Sequence record: MW822008.1
Length of the DNA stretch: 64,000 nucleotides
Strand: one strand, 5' to 3'
From: Escherichia phage BF17
In this document: positions 3,131 to 63,108 of the stretch, piece after piece
Numbering within the stretch: the first letter of the stretch is position 1
How the letters are laid out: the number at the start of each line of letters is the position of its first letter
The notes under the pieces: model-generated
What the model saw: the letters and a program-made list of their open reading frames with translations, nothing else
Told to the model about the DNA's origin: nothing
Databases searched by the model: none
Program-made: the position numbers and the translations under genes

Positions 3131-3709
3131 ATGAATGTATTAGAATTAAGTACTAAGCTGATTAGTATGCGTAATGAGTGGTACGATTGGTTTTATAATG
3201 GTACTGATATGAATTTTTCAAAATATCCATTTATGGAATCAGGATGTGATTCAAGATACCGCTGGTTGAGCAAAAGTGATTCTGGTTTACATATTAGAAT
3301 CGATGATAGTGGTCGAGGAATTATACACGATTTACTTCAAGTTGATCAATTCGTCCATGACAATTGGTGTGATAACGATCCATACCTTGGAAATATGATT
3401 TATATAAGTGAAGATGATTGCGTATTCGTTATCCAGCGACATGGTAATTCTATGTTTTATGTAGCAGACAGCAGTACACCAGAAGGTGCAGCAGCCGATG
3501 GACTTATGCCTAAGATTGATATATTGGAATTTGGATTACCTGAGCACTTCCAGATTAGTACTTTATACGATATTCCACCACTTGAGTTCTTTGAAGAATT
3601 TAAATTGTACTTCAATGATCTTCAAAAATTGAGTACTGATAGACGCATTGAAATAACTGTTAAGTACATGGACGGAACGAAATTAACCGATACGGGGATA
3701 GAATTTTGA
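3131..3709 (+). CDS. hypothetical protein
   Basis: 192-aa ORF. Confidence 0.55.
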   Translation: MNVLELSTKLISMRNEWYDWFYNGTDMNFSKYPFMESGCDSRYRWLSKSDSGLHIRIDDSGRGIIHDLLQVDQFVHDNWCDNDPYLGNMIYISEDDCVFVIQRHGNSMFYVADSSTPEGAAADGLMPKIDILEFGLPEHFQISTLYDIPPLEFFEEFKLYFNDLQKLSTDRRIEITVKYMDGTKLTDTGIEF

Positions 3710-6622: not shown

Positions 6623-7555
6623 ATGCCAACTATCACACTAACAGTTGGATTGCCTGGGTGTGGTAAAACTACATGGGCAGTGCAAGAGATTAAAAACGCC
6701 AAATCCAAGACTATCAACATCAACCGTGATGATATTCGTGAATCTATGGCTGGGTCACATGATGCTTACAAATTCAACGATGCTAATGAGCAGTACGTAA
6801 CTAATTTACAGTTCAGTGCAGCAAATTCAGCAGCAGAGAATGGTTGGAACATCATCATATCCGATACAAACCTTAAACAACATTTCCGTAATCTCTGGAA
6901 AGTATGGGCTAAAGATAATGGTTATGATTACAAAGAAAAGAACTTCTATGATGATTTTGTACCTAATGAAGACCGTGGTGCAGATGTTCATGAATTCTTT
7001 AAGATTAAAGAGTTCGTAAAACTTTGTAAGAAATATAACCTCCAGCGTGAGCGTTCAGTACAAGATGATATCATTGACACAATGGCAGATACGTACTATT
7101 ATAGTAAGGCATTACACATTGGTTACTATGGTAATTCACGCGAAGCTGCTATCATCGTTGATATCGATGGAACTCTTGCTCATAAATGGGGTCGTAATCC
7201 TTACGATGAAAGTACTGTTCTTCAGGATACACCTGATGAAGAAGTTATTTTGTCTATTATCGCTGAAGCAGTTTTTCATAAACGCAAGATTATCGTCATG
7301 AGTGGGCGTACTGAAGGGTGTCGTGCTGATACCGAACAGTGGCTTAAGAATTGGGGTGTTCCTTACGATGCATTGTTTATGCGAGATATCGATGATAAAC
7401 GTCCTGATGATGTTGTAAAATTCGACCTGTACATGAAAAATGTGGTTGATCATTACGATGTTAAAAAGGTATATGATGACCGCGATCAAGTTGTATTCAT
7501 GTGGCGTAAGCTACTTGGGTTGAAAGTTTTCCAAGTGGCTGAAGGAAATTTCTAA
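6623..7555 (+). CDS. pseT: polynucleotide 5'-kinase/3'-phosphatase (T4 PseT-like)
   Basis: 310 aa; P-loop GLPGCGKTT, NINRDD, HAD phosphatase motif VDIDGTLA, C-terminal WQVAEGNF closely match T4 Pnk. Confidence 0.9.
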   Translation: MPTITLTVGLPGCGKTTWAVQEIKNAKSKTININRDDIRESMAGSHDAYKFNDANEQYVTNLQFSAANSAAENGWNIIISDTNLKQHFRNLWKVWAKDNGYDYKEKNFYDDFVPNEDRGADVHEFFKIKEFVKLCKKYNLQRERSVQDDIIDTMADTYYYSKALHIGYYGNSREAAIIVDIDGTLAHKWGRNPYDESTVLQDTPDEEVILSIIAEAVFHKRKIIVMSGRTEGCRADTEQWLKNWGVPYDALFMRDIDDKRPDDVVKFDLYMKNVVDHYDVKKVYDDRDQVVFMWRKLLGLKVFQVAEGNF

Positions 7556-17718: not shown

Positions 17719-18009
17719 ATGAAAGTACTAGTACGTAATAATACGGAAGTAGCAAATGTATTAGAAGATTCCGATTTTATTAATGTTGCGTTCGATCAAA
17801 TTAGTGCAGTAGCACTTGAATTAAAAAATGTAGATGAATCTGAGCGTGTGCTGAATGGTTTTGCAATTGTACTTGAATTAATGAATGAAGTACTAATTAA
17901 AAAGAACATTAATCCAGTTGATGCGGTTCAACATGCAGAAGCTGTGCGTAAAGAACACGGTACATTCTCTGACAAAAAATACATTCAAACTGATGAGGTA
18001 AAAGAATAA
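17719..18009 (+). CDS. hypothetical protein
   Basis: ORF 17692..18009 trimmed to ATG after GGAG. Confidence 0.5.
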   Translation: MKVLVRNNTEVANVLEDSDFINVAFDQISAVALELKNVDESERVLNGFAIVLELMNEVLIKKNINPVDAVQHAEAVRKEHGTFSDKKYIQTDEVKE

Positions 18010-18010
18010 T

Positions 18011-18457
18011 ATGTCCAATGCACAATATAAAGATGGTTATGACGCATACAAAGCAAAAGTAGTTCTAAGTGCTGAACAGCTAAAAATGCAGCATCCATTA
18101 TATCGTCAGGGCTATCGTGCAGCACAAGCAGAAGCAATGAAGAAAAATAATGTAACTTTCCCTACTACACTATATGATATTCCAAAACGTCCACACATTT
18201 TTAAAGCTGAATGGACTGATATTATGGCAGCGACAAAGCGTCCACGCTTTGCTAAATTACACACCGATGAAGGTCGCTGGTTGCTAATGGGGATTATGAA
18301 AGCAGTTGAGAATCAATCTCATAAGATTGTTCGTTATAAAGATGTTGTTGCTATGGTTGATAAAGCATTTGACCTTGTACTTCAATATGGTTATGATGAA
18401 GGTGTTCTAACTGTTTCTGATTGTGAAAAATATCAGTACACCCCATATCAAAAATAA
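18011..18457 (+). CDS. hypothetical protein
   Basis: 148-aa ORF followed by terminator. Confidence 0.55.
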   Translation: MSNAQYKDGYDAYKAKVVLSAEQLKMQHPLYRQGYRAAQAEAMKKNNVTFPTTLYDIPKRPHIFKAEWTDIMAATKRPRFAKLHTDEGRWLLMGIMKAVENQSHKIVRYKDVVAMVDKAFDLVLQYGYDEGVLTVSDCEKYQYTPYQK

Positions 18458-18467
18458 TATTGTGAAA

Positions 18468-18497
18468 AGGAATCCTATCATGGGATTCCTATTTTTA
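18468..18497 (+). terminator. rho-independent terminator
   Basis: AGGAATCC/GGATTCCT 8-bp stem, then ATTTTT. Confidence 0.65.
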
Positions 18498-18583
18498 TTG
18501 CTGTATATCAATTTTCCATTGATCATATTTTGATCTATATGAGCTAAATACCCAAGGAATCATTGTTACTAGGGTAGGTGAAT

Positions 18584-19132
18584 ATGCAGCAATATAATTT
18601 AACTGAAGAACAAAGTGATATTTTTTACCATCATATGTTTTTAATTGATGAATTTGCTTTAAAAATTAATTCTGAAGCAATTGATATATTGAAGAAATGG
18701 TATAGTTGTTATAATAAAAACAAAAAGTGGTATTGGTTTAATAGAAATATAAAATCATTTCTAAAAACAATCACATACACTGATAGTATTGAGTTAATAC
18801 ATAGTTCTATTGGATATAGTTACTTAACTAAACACAACAGTACTATGATGTTATCAGGGTTTAAAGTTGAAAGAATTTCCAAGTTAACAGGTTTGTCATT
18901 AGAAACAATTCTATATGATATTGAGAAAATTTGGAAAACTATAGAATTAATGCATAAAAATATGTCATTCATATATAGAAATTATGATATATTCACTGAT
19001 GTACGACAATATCATAATAAACCGTATGTATTGGATGAAAAGTACTATAATCATATGGAAGTTTGTTCTAAACTCGTTGATGATTGGAATCTAGAGGGAC
19101 ATAATGAAATACACACACCTAAGTATAGATGA
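18584..19132 (+). CDS. hypothetical protein (very AT-rich)
   Basis: ORF 18578..19132, ATG at 18584. Confidence 0.5.
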   Translation: MQQYNLTEEQSDIFYHHMFLIDEFALKINSEAIDILKKWYSCYNKNKKWYWFNRNIKSFLKTITYTDSIELIHSSIGYSYLTKHNSTMMLSGFKVERISKLTGLSLETILYDIEKIWKTIELMHKNMSFIYRNYDIFTDVRQYHNKPYVLDEKYYNHMEVCSKLVDDWNLEGHNEIHTPKYR

Positions 19133-19628
19133 TACTAATATCTGGTTAGATAACATAATCAAGACATTAGAATTAATTAAACTTACATTACAAAAAACTA
19201 CTGATATTGAAATTAATATTAAACAAGAAATATTAAACTATTATCATAGAAACAAATATAGCACGTTTATCTCTAAATTAATTTATGGATTATATGATAT
19301 TGAAGATATTTGCATCGGTTACAGTACTGGTATTTGCTTCACAGTTAATGGTTTAAAAAATGATTTAAATTTCAGACTTTCCGATGAAGAGCAAGATTTT
19401 CGTAGATTTTGTGATAATATTATGGATACAGATAAAATTACATTTGTTATTGAATTAAATCAAACGTGGTCTACATATGCAGATAAACCATTTGAAATTA
19501 ATGAAACAGATGTGTTAAACTATATTCGAGTTATGAAAATTCATGATTTGTGTAAAAACGCATTGTTAAGTATTGGAGCTTATAATGAAACATACGACTT
19601 GGTTGAAGATAGCAGAAGTAGTTGCTGA
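19104..19628 (+). CDS. hypothetical protein (very AT-rich)
   Basis: 174-aa ORF overlapping upstream gene by 29 nt. Confidence 0.45.
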   Translation: MKYTHLSIDDTNIWLDNIIKTLELIKLTLQKTTDIEINIKQEILNYYHRNKYSTFISKLIYGLYDIEDICIGYSTGICFTVNGLKNDLNFRLSDEEQDFRRFCDNIMDTDKITFVIELNQTWSTYADKPFEINETDVLNYIRVMKIHDLCKNALLSIGAYNETYDLVEDSRSSC

Positions 19629-20064
19629 GGAAAGTAAATGTATTTCACAAAAAGTTGGTTGTGTTATTGTTAAAAATAACCGAGTATTGAGTACTGGATA
19701 CAATGGTACTCCATCAAAACAACCAAATTGTTGTGATGTGAATCAACACTTAGTCAATGATGGACGTTTTCAAGACTGGGTTAGTGATGAAGCAAAGCAT
19801 GAACATCATGAGTGGAGTAATATTCATGAAATCCATGCTGAAATGAACGCTTTACTCTATAGTTCTCCTACTGAACGTCAAGGTGCTACTCTTTACACAA
19901 CACTACAACCATGTTATACTTGTTCTAAGTTGATCGCAGGTAGTGGAATTTCACGTGTAATTTATCTCAAAAATTATCCTCGTACACCACCAGAAGCTAT
20001 TAAAGTACTGGAAGATGCTGGAATTATTGTTAATTGCATTTATGATAAGGGTCTTGATAAATGA
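19585..20064 (+). CDS. cd: dCMP deaminase
   Basis: HAEMNAL and PCYTCSK zinc-binding motifs of the cytidine/dCMP deaminase family; size fits T4 Cd. Confidence 0.85.
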   Translation: MKHTTWLKIAEVVAEESKCISQKVGCVIVKNNRVLSTGYNGTPSKQPNCCDVNQHLVNDGRFQDWVSDEAKHEHHEWSNIHEIHAEMNALLYSSPTERQGATLYTTLQPCYTCSKLIAGSGISRVIYLKNYPRTPPEAIKVLEDAGIIVNCIYDKGLDK

Positions 20065-20318
20065 CAGTAATAATTATTATTGCTTTTCTAATAACAGTGT
20101 TTTTCATTTTTATGTTATATATAGTTGCTATGGATGAACCTAATACTTCTTTTCGAAATTATGAAGTTCGTTTTTCTGCACAAAATAATAAGTACTATAT
20201 TGTAAACTGTATACACCGTAGTGAGAAAAGGGTAACAAGTAGATTTGGATTTACCATTTATTATAAAGACCGAGTAGAAGCTGATATGATTTGTCAGAAG
20301 CTTAATACTGTAGAATAA
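20061..20318 (+). CDS. small membrane protein
   Basis: 85 aa, N-terminal hydrophobic helix. Confidence 0.5.
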   Translation: MTVIIIIAFLITVFFIFMLYIVAMDEPNTSFRNYEVRFSAQNNKYYIVNCIHRSEKRVTSRFGFTIYYKDRVEADMICQKLNTVE

Positions 20319-20348
20319 AAAAAAGGAGCCGTATGGCTCCTTTTTTTG
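20317..20348. terminator. bidirectional rho-independent terminator
   Basis: A8-GGAGCC-GTAT-GGCTCC-T7 between convergent genes. Confidence 0.7.
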
Positions 20349-20726
20349 TTAACCAGGGAGGTTACAATAATACAAATCCCAAGGGTGATATTTCATCGCA
20401 CCAGTACTCAATTTAATTTTATGAAACTGGAATGATTCGGCAAATGCACTATCGTCAATCTTAATACAAAAAGTGTTTTTGGCTAGAGTTGGTGCAATTT
20501 CCAATGCTGTTTTAGATGCATCTAATCTAATTTTATCTTTATCATAACTAGTGATAGTTACAAAACGATAAACATTAAAATCAGTATCAATGAGATCGTA
20601 AACACAACTAGAACGTTGATTAAAGATGTTCAAGTTATATTTCAATTCACCGTTTATATTAGCTGCGGTTACACAAAACCCGCCGATATTGAATGGTAGT
20701 TTACCTTGTGCTGCGATAGCTTTCAT
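20349..20726 (-). CDS. hypothetical protein (only convincing minus-strand gene)
   Basis: 125-aa ORF on - strand with AAGGAAA SD-like sequence upstream of ATG; convergent with cd operon. Confidence 0.55.
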   Translation of the reverse strand: MKAIAAQGKLPFNIGGFCVTAANINGELKYNLNIFNQRSSCVYDLIDTDFNVYRFVTITSYDKDKIRLDASKTALEIAPTLAKNTFCIKIDDSAFAESFQFHKIKLSTGAMKYHPWDLYYCNLPG

Positions 20727-20795
20727 ATTTTATTTCCTTTTTAAATATAAGTATGAAATATATTTGTTTTTTACATCAGATGCACCATGAACTAG

Positions 20796-20824
20796 TTGAC
20801 AAAACATCAGTGGTATGATATGAT
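20796..20824 (+). promoter_or_regulatory. sigma70-type promoter
   Basis: TTGACA - 17 nt - TGaTATGAT. Confidence 0.5.
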
Positions 20825-20885
20825 CTGTTATAAACTGTACACCTTAAGTTTTATTTTTAAAAATTTGAGTTAAGTACAGAAAAAG

Positions 20886-20914
20886 TTTGACTTAAGTGTT
20901 TAAGTACTATATTA
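20886..20914 (+). promoter_or_regulatory. sigma70-type promoter
   Basis: TTGACT - 17 nt - TATTAT, 37 nt upstream of ATG 20951. Confidence 0.5.
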
Positions 20915-20950
20915 TTTATATCTTCCTAAACAAAATTGAGGACTTGTTAT

Positions 20951-21559
20951 ATGAAAAGACTATGGCTTGAAGTGATACAAGCAGCAATGTTTCTATTGTT
21001 AATAAATTTTCCAGCCAGTGCTGGTATTGAAAGTAAAAATGTGATAAAGTATAATCCTGAAACCCGAAATGTATATTTCATATCAGATATTACAGATGGG
21101 TCACTCAAGAGAATGATAGAGTTGTATGATAAAGAACACTATGATACCATCACAATTACATCTCCTGGTGGTGATTTTGATGCAGGTATTCGAATGGCAA
21201 ACTTTGTTAGAGACAATGGGATAAATTTAATTGTTTCTAGGTATTGCAATTCAGCATGTACTGTGGTATTCTTTAGTGTATCTCCCGAAAAGCGATATAT
21301 GACAAATCGCTCAGTACTGGGTCTTCATAACATTTCGATTAAAAGTAATGTTACTGATGGTGATAATTCATTTGTGTCTGTAAGACAGTTATCAACTTTT
21401 ACCGAAGAAATGGCAACAAAGGTAGGTTTCCTTTTTTCACTATATGCAGCAAATGGAATCCCACCAGAAGTTCTATTTAGAGTTAGTCGTTCTCGTGGTG
21501 AAGATGTTGTAATATTAACAAAACCAGAACTGGTTTTTTACGGTTCAGTCAAACAATAA
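20951..21559 (+). CDS. secreted ClpP/S49-fold peptidase-like protein
   Basis: N-terminal signal peptide (hydrophobic core then ASA); ITSPGGDFDAG, CNSAC, KRYMTNRSVLGLHN align with ClpP Ser/His region. Confidence 0.5.
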   Translation: MKRLWLEVIQAAMFLLLINFPASAGIESKNVIKYNPETRNVYFISDITDGSLKRMIELYDKEHYDTITITSPGGDFDAGIRMANFVRDNGINLIVSRYCNSACTVVFFSVSPEKRYMTNRSVLGLHNISIKSNVTDGDNSFVSVRQLSTFTEEMATKVGFLFSLYAANGIPPEVLFRVSRSRGEDVVILTKPELVFYGSVKQ

Positions 21560-21629
21560 AAATAATTAAAATAACAGGATGATTATGATGTACTTCCTTT
21601 GTTATTAATTATATTGAGATTATATAACT

Positions 21630-21890
21630 ATGACAAACATCCAAAACTTGACATCTATTATTTTTTATGCTACTGTAGTAATGTATGCTACAGTTATTTT
21701 TCTAACAGTTTTCATTTACAAAGATTATCGTAATGGCTTTATTGATTCAACTACAATGAAGTTCAATTCAAAATTCGAAGCAATAATTTATTATGTACTA
21801 TCAACTTCATACTTGGTGTGCCTAATGTTGTTAGGAGCACTAATTTATATCTTATACACAACATTATTTGCAATTGGAGCTATTTTATGA
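21630..21890 (+). CDS. membrane protein (3 predicted TM)
   Basis: 86-aa hydrophobic ORF. Confidence 0.5.
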   Translation: MTNIQNLTSIIFYATVVMYATVIFLTVFIYKDYRNGFIDSTTMKFNSKFEAIIYYVLSTSYLVCLMLLGALIYILYTTLFAIGAIL

Positions 21891-22480
21891 CCTGTATTAT
21901 TGCACACACTAACGGAGTAAGTTCTTTTATTGCTGGGGATAAGTTAGGAAGCAATGGATTTACAAAAACTGTTCAAACTGAACCAAAGGTATTCGAGAAA
22001 GAATTTATCAAGTTACATGATGATGGACTAACTAGAACTAAAGAAGTAATGGCATTGGGTTATACTACATCATTTCGTATGGGTCAGTTGTTAAATTATA
22101 ACCTTAATTTACCTGAACAAGATGCTAGTCAAACATTTTCACAATATTTGGTTCTTAAAGTTATTCCAATTATTCGTCAAATGTTTAAAGAAGAATGGGG
22201 TGCACGAGATGCATCACAAGATGTAGGTGGTGGACAATTTATCATTCTCCACAATCATACAATCTATGAAGTTCAAGAAGACTTTTCAGTACTACAACCT
22301 AAAACAAGAATTACCGCAGTAGGTAGTGGGACATATCATGCAATTGCAGCAATGCAAGCATATATTGAAGTTGAGAACGAATCTAAAAAACCACTACACG
22401 AACGTATCAAATCAATTTTTAAAATTGTTAGTGATAATGTAACAAGCGTAAGCGAAGAGTTTGATGTTTTAAAATATTAA
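21887..22480 (+). CDS. HslV-like Ntn-hydrolase (proteasome beta-type peptidase)
   Basis: ORF 21818..22480 trimmed to ATG overlapping upstream stop; begins M-T-CIIAHTNG..IAGD and has AVGSGTYHAIAAMQA, matching HslV TTIVSVRRNG..IAGD and AIGSGGPYAQAAARA. Confidence 0.6.
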   Translation: MTCIIAHTNGVSSFIAGDKLGSNGFTKTVQTEPKVFEKEFIKLHDDGLTRTKEVMALGYTTSFRMGQLLNYNLNLPEQDASQTFSQYLVLKVIPIIRQMFKEEWGARDASQDVGGGQFIILHNHTIYEVQEDFSVLQPKTRITAVGSGTYHAIAAMQAYIEVENESKKPLHERIKSIFKIVSDNVTSVSEEFDVLKY

Positions 22481-22507
22481 AAGTACTAATATTATAAGAG
22501 AGAATAG

Positions 22508-22702
22508 ATGATGGCATACACAATTTATGAATGGGTTTTGAGTTTTTTTATAGTTTTTTCTATTGTTGTAATTTATAACAATACTAAATGCTTATATAGG
22601 GACTTGAAATCCAATGGTTATCACAAAGATAATAATTTTATGTATGCCTATCATATTGGAATCATTCTGTTATTATCAATATATTTAATTGGTTTTTTAT
22701 AA
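22508..22702 (+). CDS. small membrane protein
   Basis: 64 aa, two hydrophobic helices. Confidence 0.45.
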   Translation: MMAYTIYEWVLSFFIVFSIVVIYNNTKCLYRDLKSNGYHKDNNFMYAYHIGIILLLSIYLIGFL

Positions 22703-22705
22703 GGA

Positions 22706-23464
22706 TTGAATATGATATCAGAAAAATTTATAAGCAATGAAGGTAAAAAGCGATTACTGATTATATCAGGTGCAGGACTTTCTGTTGAAAGTGGTATGGA
22801 ACCTTTTCGATTTGATGATGGTTTGTGGGATACATTTAAAATTAATGATGTATGTAACATTGCTAGTTTAACTACAAAATATCATGTTGTTCATTCTTTC
22901 TATAATACATTACGTGTAAAATTGGGACAATGCGAACCGAATGCAATGCATTATTTTATAAAATCGTTAGAAGATCAATATGGTGATTGCTTCCTTCATA
23001 TGACTTCTAACATGGACGATCTTTATACTCGTATTGGTGGTCATGAGCTTAAACTTCATGGAAACTTGTGCGAAGTTATTGAAAATTATAGTATCAATTC
23101 CGATGATTATAATGTTATTAACTGCGGATACGAACCATACATACCAAAACATGATGTTTTTGCTAAACCAAATGTAGTAATGATTGGAGAATATCATCGT
23201 TATGTTGATGGTATTCGCTTACCAATTTACGAAGAACGAAATAATGTGTTGAAATCTCTTAATGAAAATGATACAGTTATTGTAATTGGTAGTAGCGATA
23301 CAGTACTGGTATGGTCGAGATTAGCAGCAGCATTACCATGTTATAGTGTTAATGTTAACATTCGTAAAAATGATAATGATTTTTTGTTTAATGAAAAAGT
23401 TATCAAGCCAGCAACCAAAGCAATACCGCATCTAGAGACTATAATTAAGGAACGTATGAAATGA
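22706..23464 (+). CDS. Sir2-family (sirtuin-like) protein
   Basis: GAGLSVESGMEPFR NAD-binding motif near N-terminus, HG motif (LKLHGNL), C-terminal VIVIGSS Rossmann strand. Confidence 0.6.
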   Translation: MNMISEKFISNEGKKRLLIISGAGLSVESGMEPFRFDDGLWDTFKINDVCNIASLTTKYHVVHSFYNTLRVKLGQCEPNAMHYFIKSLEDQYGDCFLHMTSNMDDLYTRIGGHELKLHGNLCEVIENYSINSDDYNVINCGYEPYIPKHDVFAKPNVVMIGEYHRYVDGIRLPIYEERNNVLKSLNENDTVIVIGSSDTVLVWSRLAAALPCYSVNVNIRKNDNDFLFNEKVIKPATKAIPHLETIIKERMK

Positions 23465-24012
23465 GTGTTAAAGAAGTTCCCTTTGGTGAATATGGCACAC
23501 GTGCAAATTTTGTATTTTGTTATTTCTTTGCAAGAAAATGCAACCCTTACAAAAACTATGAGTTGAATGATATACCAGAAGTAAATTTAGTATTACTGCA
23601 ATTACGATGGGATGGTCTTCTTGGTGGATGTGGTGGAACCGTAGAAAGTACTGATATCTCACTAGAAGATGCGTTGCGTCGTGAAGTTCAAGAAGAAATG
23701 GATTACAATATTTTTGTTTCCCATCTTCGACCACTCAAAACTTTTGAAATTTACCCAGGTGCAAACAGTCACAGTTTTAGCTATGAAGTAACCTATGACG
23801 AGTTGAAACACATTAGAGATGGATACACTAATGCTAAACATGCAAGTGCAGAAGTTGCTGGTGTAAATTTATGTCATATTTCTCGTTATTCTAAGGGACA
23901 AAATCGAGAAGCGGGATATAATAATCTTATGACACAGAACTTCATCGGTACAGCAAAACAAGAATTGGAGTATCTGGTTCAAAAAGAAAACTTACTAATT
24001 AGTTATCTATAG
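23461..24012 (+). CDS. Nudix hydrolase
   Basis: Nudix box GGTVESTDISLEDALRREVQEEMDY (G-x5-E-x7-REVxEE). Confidence 0.7.
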   Translation: MSVKEVPFGEYGTRANFVFCYFFARKCNPYKNYELNDIPEVNLVLLQLRWDGLLGGCGGTVESTDISLEDALRREVQEEMDYNIFVSHLRPLKTFEIYPGANSHSFSYEVTYDELKHIRDGYTNAKHASAEVAGVNLCHISRYSKGQNREAGYNNLMTQNFIGTAKQELEYLVQKENLLISYL

Positions 24013-24021
24013 GAGTTTAAC

Positions 24022-24342
24022 ATGTCTTACTCAATGTTTTTGGATGATATTCGTGATGCAAATCTATATTATCCAAACCAAGATATGGTGGTATGTCGTG
24101 ACTTTAAAAGTGCATGTGAATATGTTATTGAAAATGGAATTCCAGCATTTGTATCATTCGACCATGACTTGGGTGATGTGAGCGAAGACGAAAAGACTGG
24201 ATATTCTTTTGCTAAGTTTCTTATTGATTATATGTTTGATAATAATATTAAAGAACCGTTTGAGTACTTTGTTCACAGTAGTAATCCTGTTGGTAAAATT
24301 AATATTGAAACATACTTAAACAATGGATTTAACGCATTATGA
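24022..24342 (+). CDS. hypothetical protein
   Basis: 106-aa ORF with conserved-looking acidic motifs (FDHDLG, HSSNPVG); no family assigned. Confidence 0.5.
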   Translation: MSYSMFLDDIRDANLYYPNQDMVVCRDFKSACEYVIENGIPAFVSFDHDLGDVSEDEKTGYSFAKFLIDYMFDNNIKEPFEYFVHSSNPVGKINIETYLNNGFNAL

Positions 24343-24641
24343 TTCAAACACACATCAAAAGTCTTATTTGTACTGTTCTGTTAGGTGCAGGAGTTCTTTG
24401 GTTCGGACAGTATCACGAGAACACTAAGCGTACCAACATTCACTACAATACCGCAGAAGTTGTTAGTTTAGGACAATGTAGCGAGTCCAAATGTTCATTT
24501 ATGTATAAAACCCAAAGTGGTGAAGTACGTAATGGACTATCAAGAGAACCAGTTTCAATTGGTCAACTTGTTTACCAGGAGTGCTGGGAAGAAAAGGTTC
24601 GAGGTTCACGTTGCTATGTTGAATACGAACCAAATATGTAA
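24339..24641 (+). CDS. hypothetical protein with N-terminal hydrophobic segment
   Basis: 100-aa ORF, ATGA overlap. Confidence 0.5.
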   Translation: MIQTHIKSLICTVLLGAGVLWFGQYHENTKRTNIHYNTAEVVSLGQCSESKCSFMYKTQSGEVRNGLSREPVSIGQLVYQECWEEKVRGSRCYVEYEPNM

Positions 24642-24701
24642 TAATCCGAGTCAATAACATTAGTCGAGTACAAGGATGTACTCATAACTCAAGGATGTTT
24701 T

Positions 24702-26141
24702 ATGAAAAAATATACAATTGACACAAACGTACTACTATCTGACCCGAATGCATCTATTGCTTTTGATGGTGCTGCAATCATTCTACCATTTACAGTACTG
24801 GAAGAATTGGATTCAATTAAGAGTCGTAATGTAGATGTTTCACGCGATGCTCGTGTTGCTATTCGTAACATTGAAGCAATTATTGCAGATGCATCACATG
24901 ATGAGATTAGTAGTACTGGTGTTAATATTGCTGATGTTCATACCAATATGAATCCTGATAGCAAATTGTTTGTTATTACAAACGAAGAAGCTGAAGCACT
25001 AATTCGTACTAAAGGTTCAGAAGAGAAAGTTCAAACCCTTCTCAAAAGCACAGTACCTGATGATAAAATCATTCTGGTAGCTTTAGCAACAGAATCAGTA
25101 CTGGTAACTCGTGATATCAACATGCGTATCAAAGCACTAAGTTATGGTGTCGAGGTACAAGATTATCGCCATGATATTGTTATTGGTGATAGTGATTTGA
25201 TTCACATTGGTCAACACCATTTGGAAATTAATTTTTGGGAAGTATATAGCAACTTATCCAATACTAATATTCAATCCGAACAAGTTGGTCGTCGTTTGTA
25301 TCATTACATTTCTAAAAGCTTGATTGAACATTTGCTTCCACAAAATCTATGCATCGGTGATTATCTATATGATGATGCAGACGTATTATTTGTGTACGAA
25401 GGTCAATCAGCAATTGAGGAAGATGATGGAACACTAACACCAGAAGATATTTTGGTATTCCAAGATATTGGACAATCAGTAGCTTTACGTGCTAAAGTAT
25501 GGGATATTAAAGCAAAGAATATCCAACAAGCACTCGCCATCAACAGTATTCTCGATCCTGATGTACATCTAACAGTACTGCTAGGTTCTGCTGGTACTGG
25601 TAAAACACTAATTACGATTGCTACTGCATTAGAATTAGTACTGGAAAAACGTAAATACGACCGAATCATCTTCTCTAAAACTCAAGACTCACAGTTTGAA
25701 GATATTGGTTTCTTGCCAGGTTCAGAAGCAGAAAAAGTGATTCCATTCTGTGGAGCCGCAATTGACGCGTTAGAGTTTCTTCATAAAGATGATGCTAACC
25801 CACAAGGTAGTATTGAAGAGATTATGAAACGTAATGTTATTCAATTTAAAGCACTAAACTTTGTACGTGGACGTTCATTCACCAACACTATTCTAGTAGT
25901 TGATGAATTCCAAAACATTACACCTGCACAAGCCAAAACAATCTTGACACGAGCAGGATTAAACTGTAAAGTAGTAATTATGGGTAACTTGAGTCAGATT
26001 GACAGTAAGTTTATTAGTCCTGTTAACAGTGGTTTGACATATGTAACTGAGAAGTTTAAAGATTGGGCAGGTTGTCGTGTCATCGAACTTGAAGGTGTTG
26101 TTCGCTCACCACTAGCTGAATTTGCTGAAGAAAATATGTAA
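24702..26141 (+). CDS. phoH: PIN-domain PhoH-like ATPase
   Basis: 479 aa; N-terminal PIN-like region (IDTNVLL), Walker A GSAGTGKT, Walker B VVDEFQN typical of PhoH/YlaK. Confidence 0.85.
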   Translation: MKKYTIDTNVLLSDPNASIAFDGAAIILPFTVLEELDSIKSRNVDVSRDARVAIRNIEAIIADASHDEISSTGVNIADVHTNMNPDSKLFVITNEEAEALIRTKGSEEKVQTLLKSTVPDDKIILVALATESVLVTRDINMRIKALSYGVEVQDYRHDIVIGDSDLIHIGQHHLEINFWEVYSNLSNTNIQSEQVGRRLYHYISKSLIEHLLPQNLCIGDYLYDDADVLFVYEGQSAIEEDDGTLTPEDILVFQDIGQSVALRAKVWDIKAKNIQQALAINSILDPDVHLTVLLGSAGTGKTLITIATALELVLEKRKYDRIIFSKTQDSQFEDIGFLPGSEAEKVIPFCGAAIDALEFLHKDDANPQGSIEEIMKRNVIQFKALNFVRGRSFTNTILVVDEFQNITPAQAKTILTRAGLNCKVVIMGNLSQIDSKFISPVNSGLTYVTEKFKDWAGCRVIELEGVVRSPLAEFAEENM

Positions 26142-26148
26142 TATTGTA

Positions 26149-26178
26149 TGGGACATTATGTCCCATACATGATATAAT
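26149..26178 (+). promoter_or_regulatory. early promoter with palindromic TGGGACA upstream element
   Basis: GGGACA - 17 nt - TGaTATAAT; 19-bp palindrome ATGGGACATTATGTCCCAT. Confidence 0.55.
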
Positions 26179-26209
26179 GTTGTTATCATACTACAGAAGG
26201 AGATATAAA

Positions 26210-26398
26210 ATGGCTAAACAACCTAAGAAAAAAGAACCAGTAGCAAAAGTTAAGAAAGAGAAAGTTATTCAATCTAAAGAACAACGTATGTACGAACAAC
26301 GTAAGAGTGAAACCCTATCCGGTCTACAAGCTCTACGCAAACAAGGTGTACTAACTCGTGCACAGTACCGTGAACTAGTAGCTCAGAAAGGTTTTTGA
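26210..26398 (+). CDS. small basic protein
   Basis: ORF 26144..26398 trimmed to ATG after GGAG; 62 aa, K-rich. Confidence 0.45.
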   Translation: MAKQPKKKEPVAKVKKEKVIQSKEQRMYEQRKSETLSGLQALRKQGVLTRAQYRELVAQKGF

Positions 26399-26502
26399 TT
26401 CATTTGAAGACATATTGTGGAGTTCTTAATAAATACTTTTATAAGAATAATAATACTTTTTATTAAATTAAAAAGAACTCCATGTGTTATTTCAGTTTTT
26501 CG

Positions 26503-26530
26503 TCCCTGTCTTTTGGCAGGGATTTTTTAT
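26503..26530 (+). terminator. rho-independent terminator
   Basis: CCCTGTC/GGCAGGG stem then ATTTTTT. Confidence 0.55.
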
Positions 26531-26624
26531 ATCTATATCTTGACAAAAGGAACAAATCATGAGAACATGTATTAAAGGAAGAATGACTTTCCATTAGGTT
26601 ATTTTAACTTAAAGGAGATTTCAT

Positions 26625-27182
26625 ATGTTTTTTGACCAAACATTTACGTTGTATCACGATTCTGGTAAAGTTGAGATTATTGATAATCTGTTAGAGTACA
26701 TTGCGGAACATGACGGTATAGACCGTTTCCACAGTAAGATGAAATTCGATTTAGCTGAATTCAACAAAAAGAATCGTGAAACATTTTGGAAGAACCGTTT
26801 CTATTACGAAATGTATCCAGAAAAGTTCGTAGGTTATTATCTTTGTACTGAAAAAGGATTACTTGTATCTCCTGATTTACTTATGGGTGAATACATGATA
26901 CTCTATAATGAGTACTGGGAACATAAACGTAAAGCTCGTGATAAGGAATGGCGACATAAGCGTTCGTATATGTACAAACATAACCACTCCCGATACAAGC
27001 GTCCTAAGACTCAGCAAGAGCGTCGTATGGCTTGTGCAGTACTGAAGGATGAGGGGGAACCTGAAATACGTGGAAGACGTAAGATGCGTTCATTACCATC
27101 GTATTGGGACGATATCAGAACAAGACACAGTACTGGCTGGAAATACAGTACTAAACGTAAACATCAATACAAAGGGAGCTAA
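26625..27182 (+). CDS. hypothetical protein, basic C-terminus
   Basis: 185-aa ORF; AAAGGAG upstream. Confidence 0.5.
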   Translation: MFFDQTFTLYHDSGKVEIIDNLLEYIAEHDGIDRFHSKMKFDLAEFNKKNRETFWKNRFYYEMYPEKFVGYYLCTEKGLLVSPDLLMGEYMILYNEYWEHKRKARDKEWRHKRSYMYKHNHSRYKRPKTQQERRMACAVLKDEGEPEIRGRRKMRSLPSYWDDIRTRHSTGWKYSTKRKHQYKGS

Positions 27183-35839: not shown

Positions 35840-35847
35840 TATAAATA
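35840..35847 (+). promoter_or_regulatory. T4-type late promoter core TATAAATA
   Basis: Exact TATAAATA about 35 nt upstream of the first fiber-like gene. Confidence 0.5.
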
Positions 35848-51370: not shown

Positions 51371-51399
51371 TGGGACATTATATGTTCCAATGATATAAT
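51371..51399 (+). promoter_or_regulatory. early promoter with TGGGACA upstream element
   Basis: GGGACA - 16 nt - TGaTATAAT; near-identical to promoter at 26149. Confidence 0.55.
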
Positions 51400-52521: not shown

Positions 52522-52962
52522 ATGGAAGATATTAATGATTTACGACACGTAATGGACTTTATCGGAAGTACTGAAGAAGATAATTCATATGATGAAGTAC
52601 TATTAACTTTTATTGAAAATAGTTTGTTTTTAAGTTCTGCTGCACATAACTGGCACTTACAATGTCATTTTTATACAAAGCATTTACAATTAGATGAACT
52701 ATATAAAGAATTACCAGAATATGTAGACGCATTTGTTGAAGGTATCATGAATAATCGTGGTGCTTTGCAAGTTGGGACTGGTAATAGTTATCGTTTTACA
52801 CCAATTGAAGATTGTGTACCAATTCTTGAAGAATATGTTGAGCAATGCAGAGCAATTCATGATATGCTTGAAGAATCGGGTGATTACGGCAGTGTAAACA
52901 CATTAGAAGATATTATGAGTTTTGTTGAAGGAACACTTTACAAACTTAAAGTTTTACAATAA
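52522..52962 (+). CDS. Dps/ferritin-like four-helix-bundle protein
   Basis: AAHNWHLQCHFYTKHLQLDELYKELPEYVDAFVEG shows H-x11-H-x14-D-x3-E spacing as in Dps ferroxidase-site residues. Confidence 0.45.
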   Translation: MEDINDLRHVMDFIGSTEEDNSYDEVLLTFIENSLFLSSAAHNWHLQCHFYTKHLQLDELYKELPEYVDAFVEGIMNNRGALQVGTGNSYRFTPIEDCVPILEEYVEQCRAIHDMLEESGDYGSVNTLEDIMSFVEGTLYKLKVLQ

Positions 52963-63079: not shown

Positions 63080-63108
63080 TGGGACAAGTTAACATCTTCT
63101 GATATAAT
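63080..63108 (+). promoter_or_regulatory. early promoter with TGGGACA upstream element
   Basis: GGGACA - 16 nt - TGaTATAAT. Confidence 0.5.

Follow-up and report, generated by a model that had tools for sequence, protein, structure and literature searches.

A probable late gene for a small virion protein, reversed within the early/middle gene block of a PBECO4-type (Asteriusvirus) jumbo phage

T5 pb10 and T4 Hoc are two-module decoration proteins that join a capsid-binding domain to exposed Ig-like domains, and surface decoration proteins typically pair a conserved non-Ig domain with Ig-like domains in varying number. Among RaK2-like jumbo phages, the relatives of the protein considered here resemble this layout, having a conserved non-Ig domain and a varying count of Ig-like ones. 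The copy we studied is encoded on the minus strand at 20349..20726 of a 64,000-nucleotide stretch of Escherichia phage BF17 (MW822008.1; hereafter the window). It has in common with RaK2 gp496, GAP32_111, CBB_112 and 7t3_0291 the N-terminal domain, the antisense slot, a late-type motif and the kind of terminator, but is without the one or two Big_2 domains that those proteins carry; it also differs from pb10 and Hoc in having no Ig module and no sequence or fold likeness to solved structures. Closer still are phAPEC6 gp347 and PBECO4 gp098, identical to the window gene in sequence, position and strand, and 121Q gp471, upstream of which a 43-codon stub takes the place of the segment that bears promoter P1 in the window. 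The gene is thus already catalogued as a virion protein of PBECO4/121Q-type giant coliphages and is largely known. Its surroundings are like those of T4-type late genes in a perfect TATAAATA, no good −35 element, avoidance of the motif elsewhere, marking of virion genes by the motif and an annotated late sigma factor, while the leader of ~180 nt greatly exceeds the usual length and the late timing is here a prediction; homologues of gp33 and gp45 are not reported in the CBB-type phage group (PMC5259590). Our overall reading, to which we give a probability of roughly three in four, is that the gene is a late one, reversed within the plus-strand early/middle block of a PBECO4-type (Asteriusvirus) phage, and that its small virion-protein product is apparently abundant.

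At 99.6% identity to PBECO4, SP27 and phAPEC6, the window belongs to an Asteriusvirus jumbo phage. The gene opens with ATG and encodes 125 aa (14.1 kDa), its assignment as a virion-protein gene resting on homology and virion proteomes, and is the same gene as PBECO4 gp098, 121Q gp471 and phAPEC6 gp347, for which the Asteriusvirus annotation is 'virion structural protein'. A preliminary description of the window had singled it out as the sole convincing minus-strand gene and as having a good ribosome-binding site, and both points hold: AAGGA can be read from the sequence at 20735..20739 on the minus strand, 8 nt 5′ of the ATG; all PBECO4 RefSeq genes from gp027 to gp144 (~118 genes, spanning the window and beyond) lie on one strand save gp098; and every other minus-strand ORF of at least 100 aa in the window is nested in a longer plus-strand ORF. 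By tblastn the product is 100% identical in at least 14 phage records and has a RaK2 match at 39% identity (E = 2e-16); 121Q gp471 is 96.8% identical. Profile matches were to phrog_33171 (E = 4.6e-88) and phrog_10468 (E = 2.5e-13). No paralogue of the protein occurs inside the window, and one of 385 aa (121Q gp155 / fEgEco12 g507) is located outside it.

Evidence from virions places the product in the particle. phAPEC6 gp347, listed at 14.10 kDa against a computed mass of 14.108 kDa for the window product, was seen in virions by ESI-MS/MS (8 unique peptides), and its coverage of 75.2% tops the list of 62 phAPEC6 virion proteins (PMC7247149, Table 1). The orthologue CBB_112 is likewise in the virion proteome of CBB (4 peptides, 24.3% coverage). 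With mass-spectrometric coverage as a rough proxy for abundance, gp347 is apparently an abundant virion protein. The prospect, raised beforehand, that the minus-strand ORF might lack both expression and conservation is contradicted by the phAPEC6 peptides and by orthologues across genera.

The conserved part of the family is an N-terminal domain of ~115 aa, 37–40% identical to that of RaK2 gp496, GAP32_111, CBB_112 and 7t3_0291, and profile search and alignment are concordant on its homology to the gp496/GAP32_111 family. C-terminal Big_2 Ig domains are present in the RaK2, GAP32, CBB and 7t3 orthologues (by Pfam, one in RaK2 and two in GAP32); the 125-aa product has no match to Big_2 or any other Pfam family and, in the alignment, stops before the Big_2 region. 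Judged by sequence, it is an 'anchor-only' member of the RaK2 gp496 / GAP32_111 / CBB_112 family, and the other members of this form are those of EJP2, L017_129 and P0019–P0022. The 'Ig domain' note given for gp471 in the 121Q record was rejected, as there is no Big_2 match and the AF2 model of the 125-aa protein (pLDDT 81.7) does not have an Ig fold. In two relatives, P0093 and P0173, we observed the N-terminal domain together with 7–8 matched stretches.

Searches of the PDB by sequence, with the protein and with an N-domain profile, returned chance-level matches only, and Foldseek of the AF2 model against the PDB gave nothing at E < 0.5. A fold search of BFVD returned only the phage family itself, plus weak matches to Atu_ph07 and uncultured phages. 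A library-wide profile search that included the Big_2 regions of relatives was swamped by Ig repeats (86,229 matches) and was uninformative on the spread of the N-terminal domain. From domain architecture alone we infer that this domain is a virion-anchoring module. A cryo-EM study of phAPEC6/121Q described an unassigned second-capsid-layer protein as numerous as the major capsid protein, of which there are 1620 copies. In a speculative joint reading, which we consider doubtful, the N-terminal ~115 aa would be an uncharacterised anchoring module of RaK2-like jumbo phages without a solved structural homologue, its display modules (Big_2 repeats, a 520-aa extension, or none) would be swapped at a late-gene hot spot, and gp347 could form that second capsid layer.

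Downstream, the gene converges on an operon whose penultimate member is cd (19573..20064, plus strand; Pfam dCMP_cyt_deam_1, E = 4.9e-22), labelled dCMP deaminase in the PBECO4 and 121Q records. The last ORF before the terminator is a conserved one of 85 aa (20061..20318, plus strand; phrog_19937, E = 1e-31), with counterparts in the same place in 121Q_470, GAP32_110, 7t3_0290, EJP2_117 and CBB_111; in the PBECO4 RefSeq record it is unannotated. Between the stop codons of the two units, TAA at 20316–20318 and TTA (the reverse complement of TAA) at 20349–20351, the entire gap is taken up by a hairpin at 20317..20347 that reads as an intrinsic terminator on both strands: A8 at 20317–20324, a GGAGCC/GGCTCC stem at 20325–20330 and 20335–20340 around a GTAT loop, and T7 at 20341–20347. 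On the plus strand it folds at −21.3 kcal/mol (z = −4.5), on the minus strand at −20.0 (z = −6.7), and none of 200 shuffles folded as well on either strand. An automated terminator scan of the window did not call the hairpin at 20317–20347; the likely cause is pairing between the A and T runs, which lengthens the stem and leaves no T tail. The record of vB_EcoM_G17 labels the same hairpin a terminator.

Conservation points the same way. The same stem and A/T tracts, with differing loops, are found in 121Q, EJP2, GAP32, fEgEco12 and L019, and in L017 the stem is longer by one pair. RaK2 (GGAGAACT/AGTTCTCC) and 7t3 (GGAGGCC/GGCCTCC) have different stems in which pairing is kept. The hairpin is predicted from sequence to be a bidirectional intrinsic terminator shared by both units, and the convergence of the gene with the cd operon at a symmetric A8-hairpin-T7 element, as first described, is borne out by folding statistics, the G17 annotation and the conserved pairing.

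On the other side of the gene, two intergenic sigma70-like promoters aim away from it, again as first described, their function being inferred from their matches and position. P1 (20796..20824, plus strand) reads TTGACA-17-TATGAT with an extended −10 TG (11/12 matches), and P2 (20887..20915, plus strand) reads TTGACT-17-TATTAT (10/12). Matches of sigma70 type are not rare overall (85 found in 15 kb against 83 expected); on the plus strand, 14 of the 56 sites with at least 10/12 matches fall in the non-coding 7.6% of the window, an approximately 3-fold enrichment. P2 is placed to drive, with a leader of ~29 nt, a gene for a ClpP/crotonase-like protease (20951..21559, plus strand; phrog_26024, E = 4e-119; weak Pfam CLP_protease match) that is the first of the divergent unit. 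P2 is identical in 121Q, and fEgEco12 and L019 preserve a recognisable −35 element and layout; P1 is restricted to the PBECO4-like clade.

Upstream of the minus-strand gene itself, the best sigma70-like site on that strand scores 8/12. What is found there instead is a perfect match to the T4-type late promoter core, TATAAATA, at 20913..20920 on the minus strand, predicted to be functional on the basis of motif, depletion and conservation. It overlaps the −10 element of P2 by 3 nt and lies 186 nt from the ATG, with a predicted transcription start at ~20906 and hence a leader of ~180 nt. The core is strongly avoided, with 2 occurrences of TATAAATA in the window against 12.8 ± 3.5 expected and 4 of ATAAATA in the 64 kb against 44.5 ± 6.8 (approximately 10-fold depletion), and the chance that one of four ATAAATA sites would hit the right strand of the 224-nt upstream gap is ~0.007. 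Two of the three remaining ATAAATA sites stand directly 5′ of virion-protein genes (gp323c; gp315c/gp314c) and a CTAAATA site precedes gp306c, and all four products are in the virion proteome. In the structural region of phAPEC6, all nine ATAAATA sites are intergenic or at gene 3′ ends, eight of them 17–79 nt 5′ of annotated starts.

The site is kept in 121Q and L019, and ATAAATA occurs 30–50 nt 5′ of orthologues or paralogues in EJP2, GAP32, BF and fEgEco12. In the fEgEco12 locus from which the antisense gene has been lost, the motif survives as CATAAATA; given this survival and the overlap with the −10 of P2, part of the motif's conservation could stem from P2. A late sigma factor is at hand by annotation, phAPEC6 gp237c being labelled 'sigma factor for late transcription' (outside the window). 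In CBB, CBB_244 is a gp55-like sigma and Porf_112 (ATAAATATTAATAT) is among the predicted late promoters (PMC5259590). Around the predicted leader, a 192-nt segment (20715–20906, the ~180-nt leader and first codons) showed no detectable structure (z = −0.33), an Rfam scan of 20000–27000 at a permissive threshold returned nothing near a gathering score, and repeats linking the intergenic region to the rest of the window were limited to chance matches of 11–13 nt. The literature searched yielded no Asteriusvirus transcriptome or high-resolution virion structure.

The unusual distance of the distal TATAAATA from the ATG, set against late-type motifs only 30–50 nt upstream of orthologues, suggests another possibility: the gene could be read from a proximal promoter near its ribosome-binding site (ACAAATATATTT at about −45, or read-through or antisense initiation near P1), with the distal core a mere by-product of P2. 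The survival of the motif in fEgEco12 without the gene would fit this, as would a GTAAATA, a depleted variant, ~55 nt 5′ of gene 471 in 121Q, inside the stub. We find it unlikely, since the only minus-strand TAAATA in the interval up to the ClpP-like gene is the distal site, the minus strand offers nothing better than the 8/12 sigma70-like match, and L019 likewise has TATAAATA ~180 nt before its first cassette gene. The specific candidate ACAAATATATTT was rejected: its ACAAATA is not depleted (observed/expected 1.08), so that use as a late promoter is improbable. To all appearance, a T4-type promoter of its own turns the minus-strand gene on late in infection.

The same interlocking of elements could be taken to mean that the main role of the minus-strand unit is to insulate transcription of the cd operon from that of the ClpP-like/Sir2 operon, the protein being incidental. 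Late leftward transcription would cross P1, the late core overlaps the −10 of P2, and fEgEco12 retains the terminator and P2 despite loss of the gene. Yet the fEgEco12 arrangement also indicates that the terminator alone suffices to part the operons, and a protein that is unchanged in at least 14 isolates, 96.8% identical in 121Q, found in virions and related to conserved homologues bearing display domains makes a purely insulating role very unlikely.

Comparison among relatives shows where the locus varies. The antisense slot after cd is filled in RaK2_00496, GAP32_111, CBB_112, 7t3_0291, EJP2_118, 121Q_471, L017 and L019, so that an antisense gene occupies this position in at least three named genera and in unclassified relatives. 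The number of minus-strand cassette genes ranges from none in fEgEco12 through one in the window, one plus a stub in 121Q and two in L017 to three in L019. A deletion/replacement junction, which carries P1, lies at approximately 20759..20862 and is absent from 121Q and L019: homology to L019 ends at 20758 (blastn), and the 121Q alignment shows the same segment missing. At this junction 121Q has the 43-codon stub ORF472, 66% identical to the N-terminus of a 637-aa paralogue in L019 (E = 4e-13). On this comparative evidence the cd-adjacent locus is an indel hot spot in which it is the minus-strand cassette itself that varies.

The preliminary description had placed the variation elsewhere, taking the gene as an insertion boundary that opens an accessory island running to ~26.2 kb and proposing a synteny comparison of 20.3–26.2 kb as an indel. 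A strand switch, a terminator and fresh promoters do resemble a module boundary, and the ClpP-like, HslV-like, Sir2, Nudix and PIN-PhoH genes look 'accessory'. However, the order cd, ClpP-like, Sir2, Nudix, PhoH is kept in 121Q, fEgEco12, RaK2 (a different genus) and two metagenomic relatives, and the block from 20.3 to 26.2 kb is collinear in 121Q, fEgEco12 and L019 and largely so in RaK2, where gp497 is a homologue of the ClpP-like protein (37% identity) in the same position; L017 keeps Sir2 followed by PhoH. Within 20.9–26.1 kb, the sole inter-genus difference is the small-ORF and HslV-like segment (~21.6–22.5 kb), in whose stead RaK2, GAP32, 7t3, EJP2 and L017 have NAD-salvage genes, a swap that would suit an island. 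GC content is uniform (33.3% in the gene, 33.5% at 20936–26141 and 33.6% in the window), and among the six larger ORFs of 20.9–26.1 kb, a set excluding the small ORFs at 21630–21890, 24022–24342 and 24339–24641, none matched a Pfam family concerned with mobility. With the antisense gene also ancient at its cd-adjacent position, horizontal acquisition of 20.3–26.2 kb as an accessory island is highly improbable. The synteny comparison thus goes against the island; the idea of an indel survives for the locus, with the cassette as the unit that varies.

Under our preferred reading as a late virion gene, transcription late in infection would begin at the T4-type TATAAATA (20913–20920, minus strand), which a putative gp55-like sigma factor of the phage would recognise. 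The leftward transcript would cover the ~180-nt leader and then the gene at 20349–20726, ending at the bidirectional terminator, which would also stop the oncoming transcript of the cd operon. The late promoter would be interlocked with the −10 of the early promoter P2, and P2 and P1 would drive the ClpP-like, HslV-like, Sir2, Nudix and PhoH genes rightwards. Loss by deletion of the displayed domains and of the neighbouring 637-aa paralogue may have left this lineage with an anchor-only decoration protein.

The main value of these results is a correction and a clean annotation, including that the 'Ig domain' label is wrong for the truncated copy. Rather than a scar of horizontal transfer, the strand switch reads as something customary in T4-like phages, a late virion gene set in reverse orientation into an early block. 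A strongly avoided (A/C)TAAATA late-promoter core can be read from Asteriusvirus sequence alone, as can a second regulatory signal, a distinct class of the form GGGACA-N16-TATAAT. The slot and the domain suggest a natural site and scaffold for display engineering on jumbo phages, and the proteins encoded in the slot give structural biologists a few candidates to consider for the decoration densities still unassigned on phAPEC6 and 121Q. For the family as a whole, the cd-adjacent slot would be a site at which RaK2-like phages acquire and discard surface proteins of the virion that share a single anchoring domain.

The 3 kb around the minus-strand gene (20349-20726, 125 aa) are 99.4-99.6% identical to the Escherichia phages SP27, PBECO4, slurp01, phAPEC6 and G17 and 88.7% identical to 121Q, all of them Asteriusvirus jumbo myoviruses of ~350 kb. 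The PBECO4 RefSeq equivalents are gp099 (cd, the dCMP deaminase gene), gp098 ("virion structural protein", opposite strand) and gp097 ("protease"). The preliminary description of the gene as the only convincing one on its strand, with a good ribosome-binding site, was confirmed: AAGGA lies 8 nt before the ATG, the other minus-strand ORFs of at least 100 aa all sit within longer plus-strand ORFs, and gp098 is likewise the sole opposite-strand gene from PBECO4 gp027 to gp144. The gene does converge on the cd operon, with A8-GGAGCC-GTAT-GGCTCC-T7 occupying the whole gap between the two stop codons. Its folding energy is -21.3 kcal/mol for the plus strand (z = -4.5) and -20.0 kcal/mol for the minus strand (z = -6.7); the G17 record carries a terminator annotation on this hairpin. 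The stem-loop GGAGCC-N4-GGCTCC, again set between an A run and a T run, is also found in 121Q, EJP2, GAP32 and the metagenomic contig L019, while the stem is one pair longer in a second contig, L017, and differs in sequence with pairing preserved in RaK2 and 7t3; fEgEco12, which is without the antisense gene, retains the hairpin. The gene is bounded by a predicted bidirectional terminator that is conserved. Beside it, the PBECO4 RefSeq annotation omits a conserved 85-aa ORF after cd (window 20061-20318, +), and the phAPEC6 record leaves cd itself unannotated (phAPEC6 excerpt 3165-3596). On the other side, the two sigma70-like promoters noted as firing away from the gene are real consensus matches on the plus strand, ahead of a ClpP-like protease gene (20951-21559): P1 (20796-20824) has 11 of 12 matches with TG, and P2 (20887-20915, -10 at 20910-15) has 10 of 12. 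Such matches are generally frequent in the AT-rich DNA of the window, and 14 of the 56 plus-strand sites with at least 10/12 fall in its non-coding 7.6%, an enrichment of ~3-fold.

This arrangement had been read as an insertion boundary, the start of an accessory island running to ~26.2 kb, but that reading is wrong. Directly after the cd operon, an antisense homologue occupies the same slot in 121Q (gp471, 125 aa), EJP2 (gp118, 139 aa), RaK2 (Alcyoneusvirus; gp496, 212 aa), the Mimasvirus phages GAP32 (gp111, 303 aa) and CBB (CBB_112, 218 aa), Salmonella phage 7t3 (0291, 224 aa), L017 and L019. The ClpP-like, Sir2, Nudix and PhoH genes of the supposed indel (20.3-26.2 kb) are collinear in relatives: RaK2 has a ClpP-like homologue, gp497, in the equivalent position, the order Sir2, Nudix, PhoH is the same in RaK2, 121Q, fEgEco12 and L019, and L017 keeps Sir2 then PhoH. 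Both flanks of the locus, 18001-20346 and 21158-23996, align collinearly with L019 at 70-73% DNA identity, and GC content is uniform across the locus. Together, the conserved slot, gene order, collinear L019 flanks and uniform GC refute the island, and sequence comparison points to an old slot rather than an insertion. The sole between-genus difference among plus-strand genes lies between the ClpP-like gene and Sir2 (21630-22480, +), where a small ORF and an HslV-like peptidase are found in the PBECO4/121Q/fEgEco12/L019 lineage and are replaced by NMNAT and NAMPT (NAD salvage) in RaK2, GAP32, 7t3, EJP2 and L017; PBECO4-type phages were absent among the 40 best matches listed in a NAMPT search. 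The N-terminus of the ClpP/crotonase-like protease (20951-21040, +; MKRLWLEVIQAAMFLLLINFPASA, then G) resembles by eye a Sec signal peptide, AxA cleavage site included; if the signal is real, the protease would be exported, not cytoplasmic.

Judged by these alignments, the variable unit at the locus is the antisense cassette. It holds no antisense gene in the fEgEco12 clade, one in the PBECO4-like window, one plus a 43-codon ORF in 121Q, two in L017 (129 and 344 aa) and three in L019 (637 aa; 162 aa with 66% identity to the window protein; and an unrelated 162 aa). All family members share an N-terminal domain of ~115 aa, present in both L017 proteins and in the 637-aa protein of L019; beyond it RaK2 has one Big_2 (Ig-like) domain and GAP32 two, whereas the window protein and those of EJP2, L017 and four metagenomic matches (P0019-P0022) consist of this domain alone. 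The annotated 43-aa gene 472 of 121Q (7221-7352 of the 121Q excerpt, minus strand of the locus) matches the N-terminus of the 637-aa protein, whose gene is in the equivalent position, at 66% identity over 32 residues (E = 4e-13), and is therefore a pseudogene, the stub that a gene deletion left behind. In the window, P1-bearing sequence (~20759-20862) is substituted for the stub region.

The gene faces backwards within a block of early/middle genes, and for its CBB orthologue a late promoter has already been predicted in print: ATAAATA, likened to T4 TATAAATA, is described ahead of structural genes in CBB and GAP32, a gp55-like sigma factor is reported, and the promoter of the orthologue, Porf_112, appears in Table S7 (PMC5259590). 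In phAPEC6, gp237c carries a late sigma factor annotation. The window contains TATAAATA twice against 12.8 +/- 3.5 expected and ATAAATA four times against 44.5 +/- 6.8. TAAATA, whatever the base before it, occurs 3- to 5-fold less often than expected on either strand of the window and of phAPEC6 150-200 kb (NTAAATA observed/expected 0.19-0.38, ATAAATA 0.19), a pattern consistent with selection across the genome to avoid spurious late promoters. One ATAAATA (20913-20919, -) has the minus gene 186 nt downstream; those at 35841 (+) and 45266 (+) lie 34 nt before an 898-aa virion gene (35882-38578, = gp323c) and 29 nt before a 42-aa virion gene (45302-45430, = gp315c) followed by the tail-fibre gene gp314c, and the fourth, at 26429 (+), is unexplained. 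CTAAATA also stands 29 nt before the equivalent, at 52522, of the virion protein gene gp306c. Across 50 kb of the phAPEC6 structural region, all nine ATAAATA sites are intergenic or lie at the 3' end of a gene, and eight are 17-79 nt upstream of an annotated start. From this we assign TATAAATA at 20913-20920 (-) to the minus gene as its predicted late promoter. It shares 3 nt with the P2 -10, so that the predicted late promoter, firing leftward, interlocks with the early one that fires rightward. Upstream of the gene, no minus-strand sigma70-like site scored above 8/12, and the only proximal look-alike, ACAAATA, is ruled out since that motif is not depleted (1.08). The long leader, in which no structure was detectable, is the weak point of the assignment; ~180 nt likewise separate TATAAATA from the first cassette gene in L019, so the distance seems ancestral.

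Several other features were noted. TTAAATA, a depleted variant, at 20741-20747 (+) lies less than 20 nt from the minus-gene start codon, facing rightward in the direction of P1, P2 and the ClpP-like gene; it may be a weak late promoter of the plus-strand genes or a chance match. ATAAATA at 26429 lies between the equivalents of gp340c and gp339c, ~70 nt before a terminator-like hairpin (26502-26523, +; GTCCCTGTC-TTTT-GGCAGGGAT, then a T run); 26429-26523 held no convincing ORF between motif and hairpin and nothing near threshold in an Rfam scan, and could be a predicted short late transcript. GGGACA-N16-TATAAT, always ...GATATAAT, occurs four times on the plus strand (1688-1715, 23895-23922, 51372-51399, 63081-63108) against 0.01 expected, with a 17-nt-spacer variant at 26150-26178; it looks like a promoter class distinct from the TTGACA and TATAAATA classes, perhaps middle or phage-sigma dependent. 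The 42-aa gene product (phAPEC6 gp315c, 4.66 kDa, 69% MS coverage) is encoded across the start of a 178-aa ORF (45393-45929, +), annotated as tail fibre protein in PBECO4 (gp064) and unannotated in phAPEC6.

The minus-gene protein is 100% identical in at least 14 deposited phages and is phAPEC6 gp347 (computed 14.108 kDa, 14.10 kDa in the paper), one of 62 virion-associated proteins; its coverage of 75.2% (8 unique peptides) tops Table 1, narrowly ahead of the 74.9% for the major head protein (Wagemans et al. 2020, PMC7247149). MS also found the orthologue CBB_112 in virions of CBB (4 peptides, 24.3% coverage). The gene is expressed and encodes a virion component; it is an already known, MS-verified virion-protein gene, genuine but ordinary. 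A universal second paralogue of ~385 aa (BF gp432, fEgEco12 g507, 121Q gp155), found in at least 60 records of related phages, is a lone antisense gene elsewhere in the fEgEco12 and BF genomes. The AF2 model of the minus-gene protein (pLDDT 81.7, pTM 0.76) is mainly beta with one helix, and significant BFVD fold matches (E <= 0.001) were all within the same phage group; given these results and the N-terminal domain standing alone, the "Ig domain" note in 121Q is a transferred label unfit for the truncated copy. The phAPEC6 authors could not assign an elongated "second layer" capsid protein whose copy number equals that of the major capsid protein (PMC7247149), and gp347 is possibly one of the decoration densities left unassigned. 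What remains of interest is an uncharacterised, putatively anchoring domain, the turnover of the cassette and gp347 as a possible decoration density.
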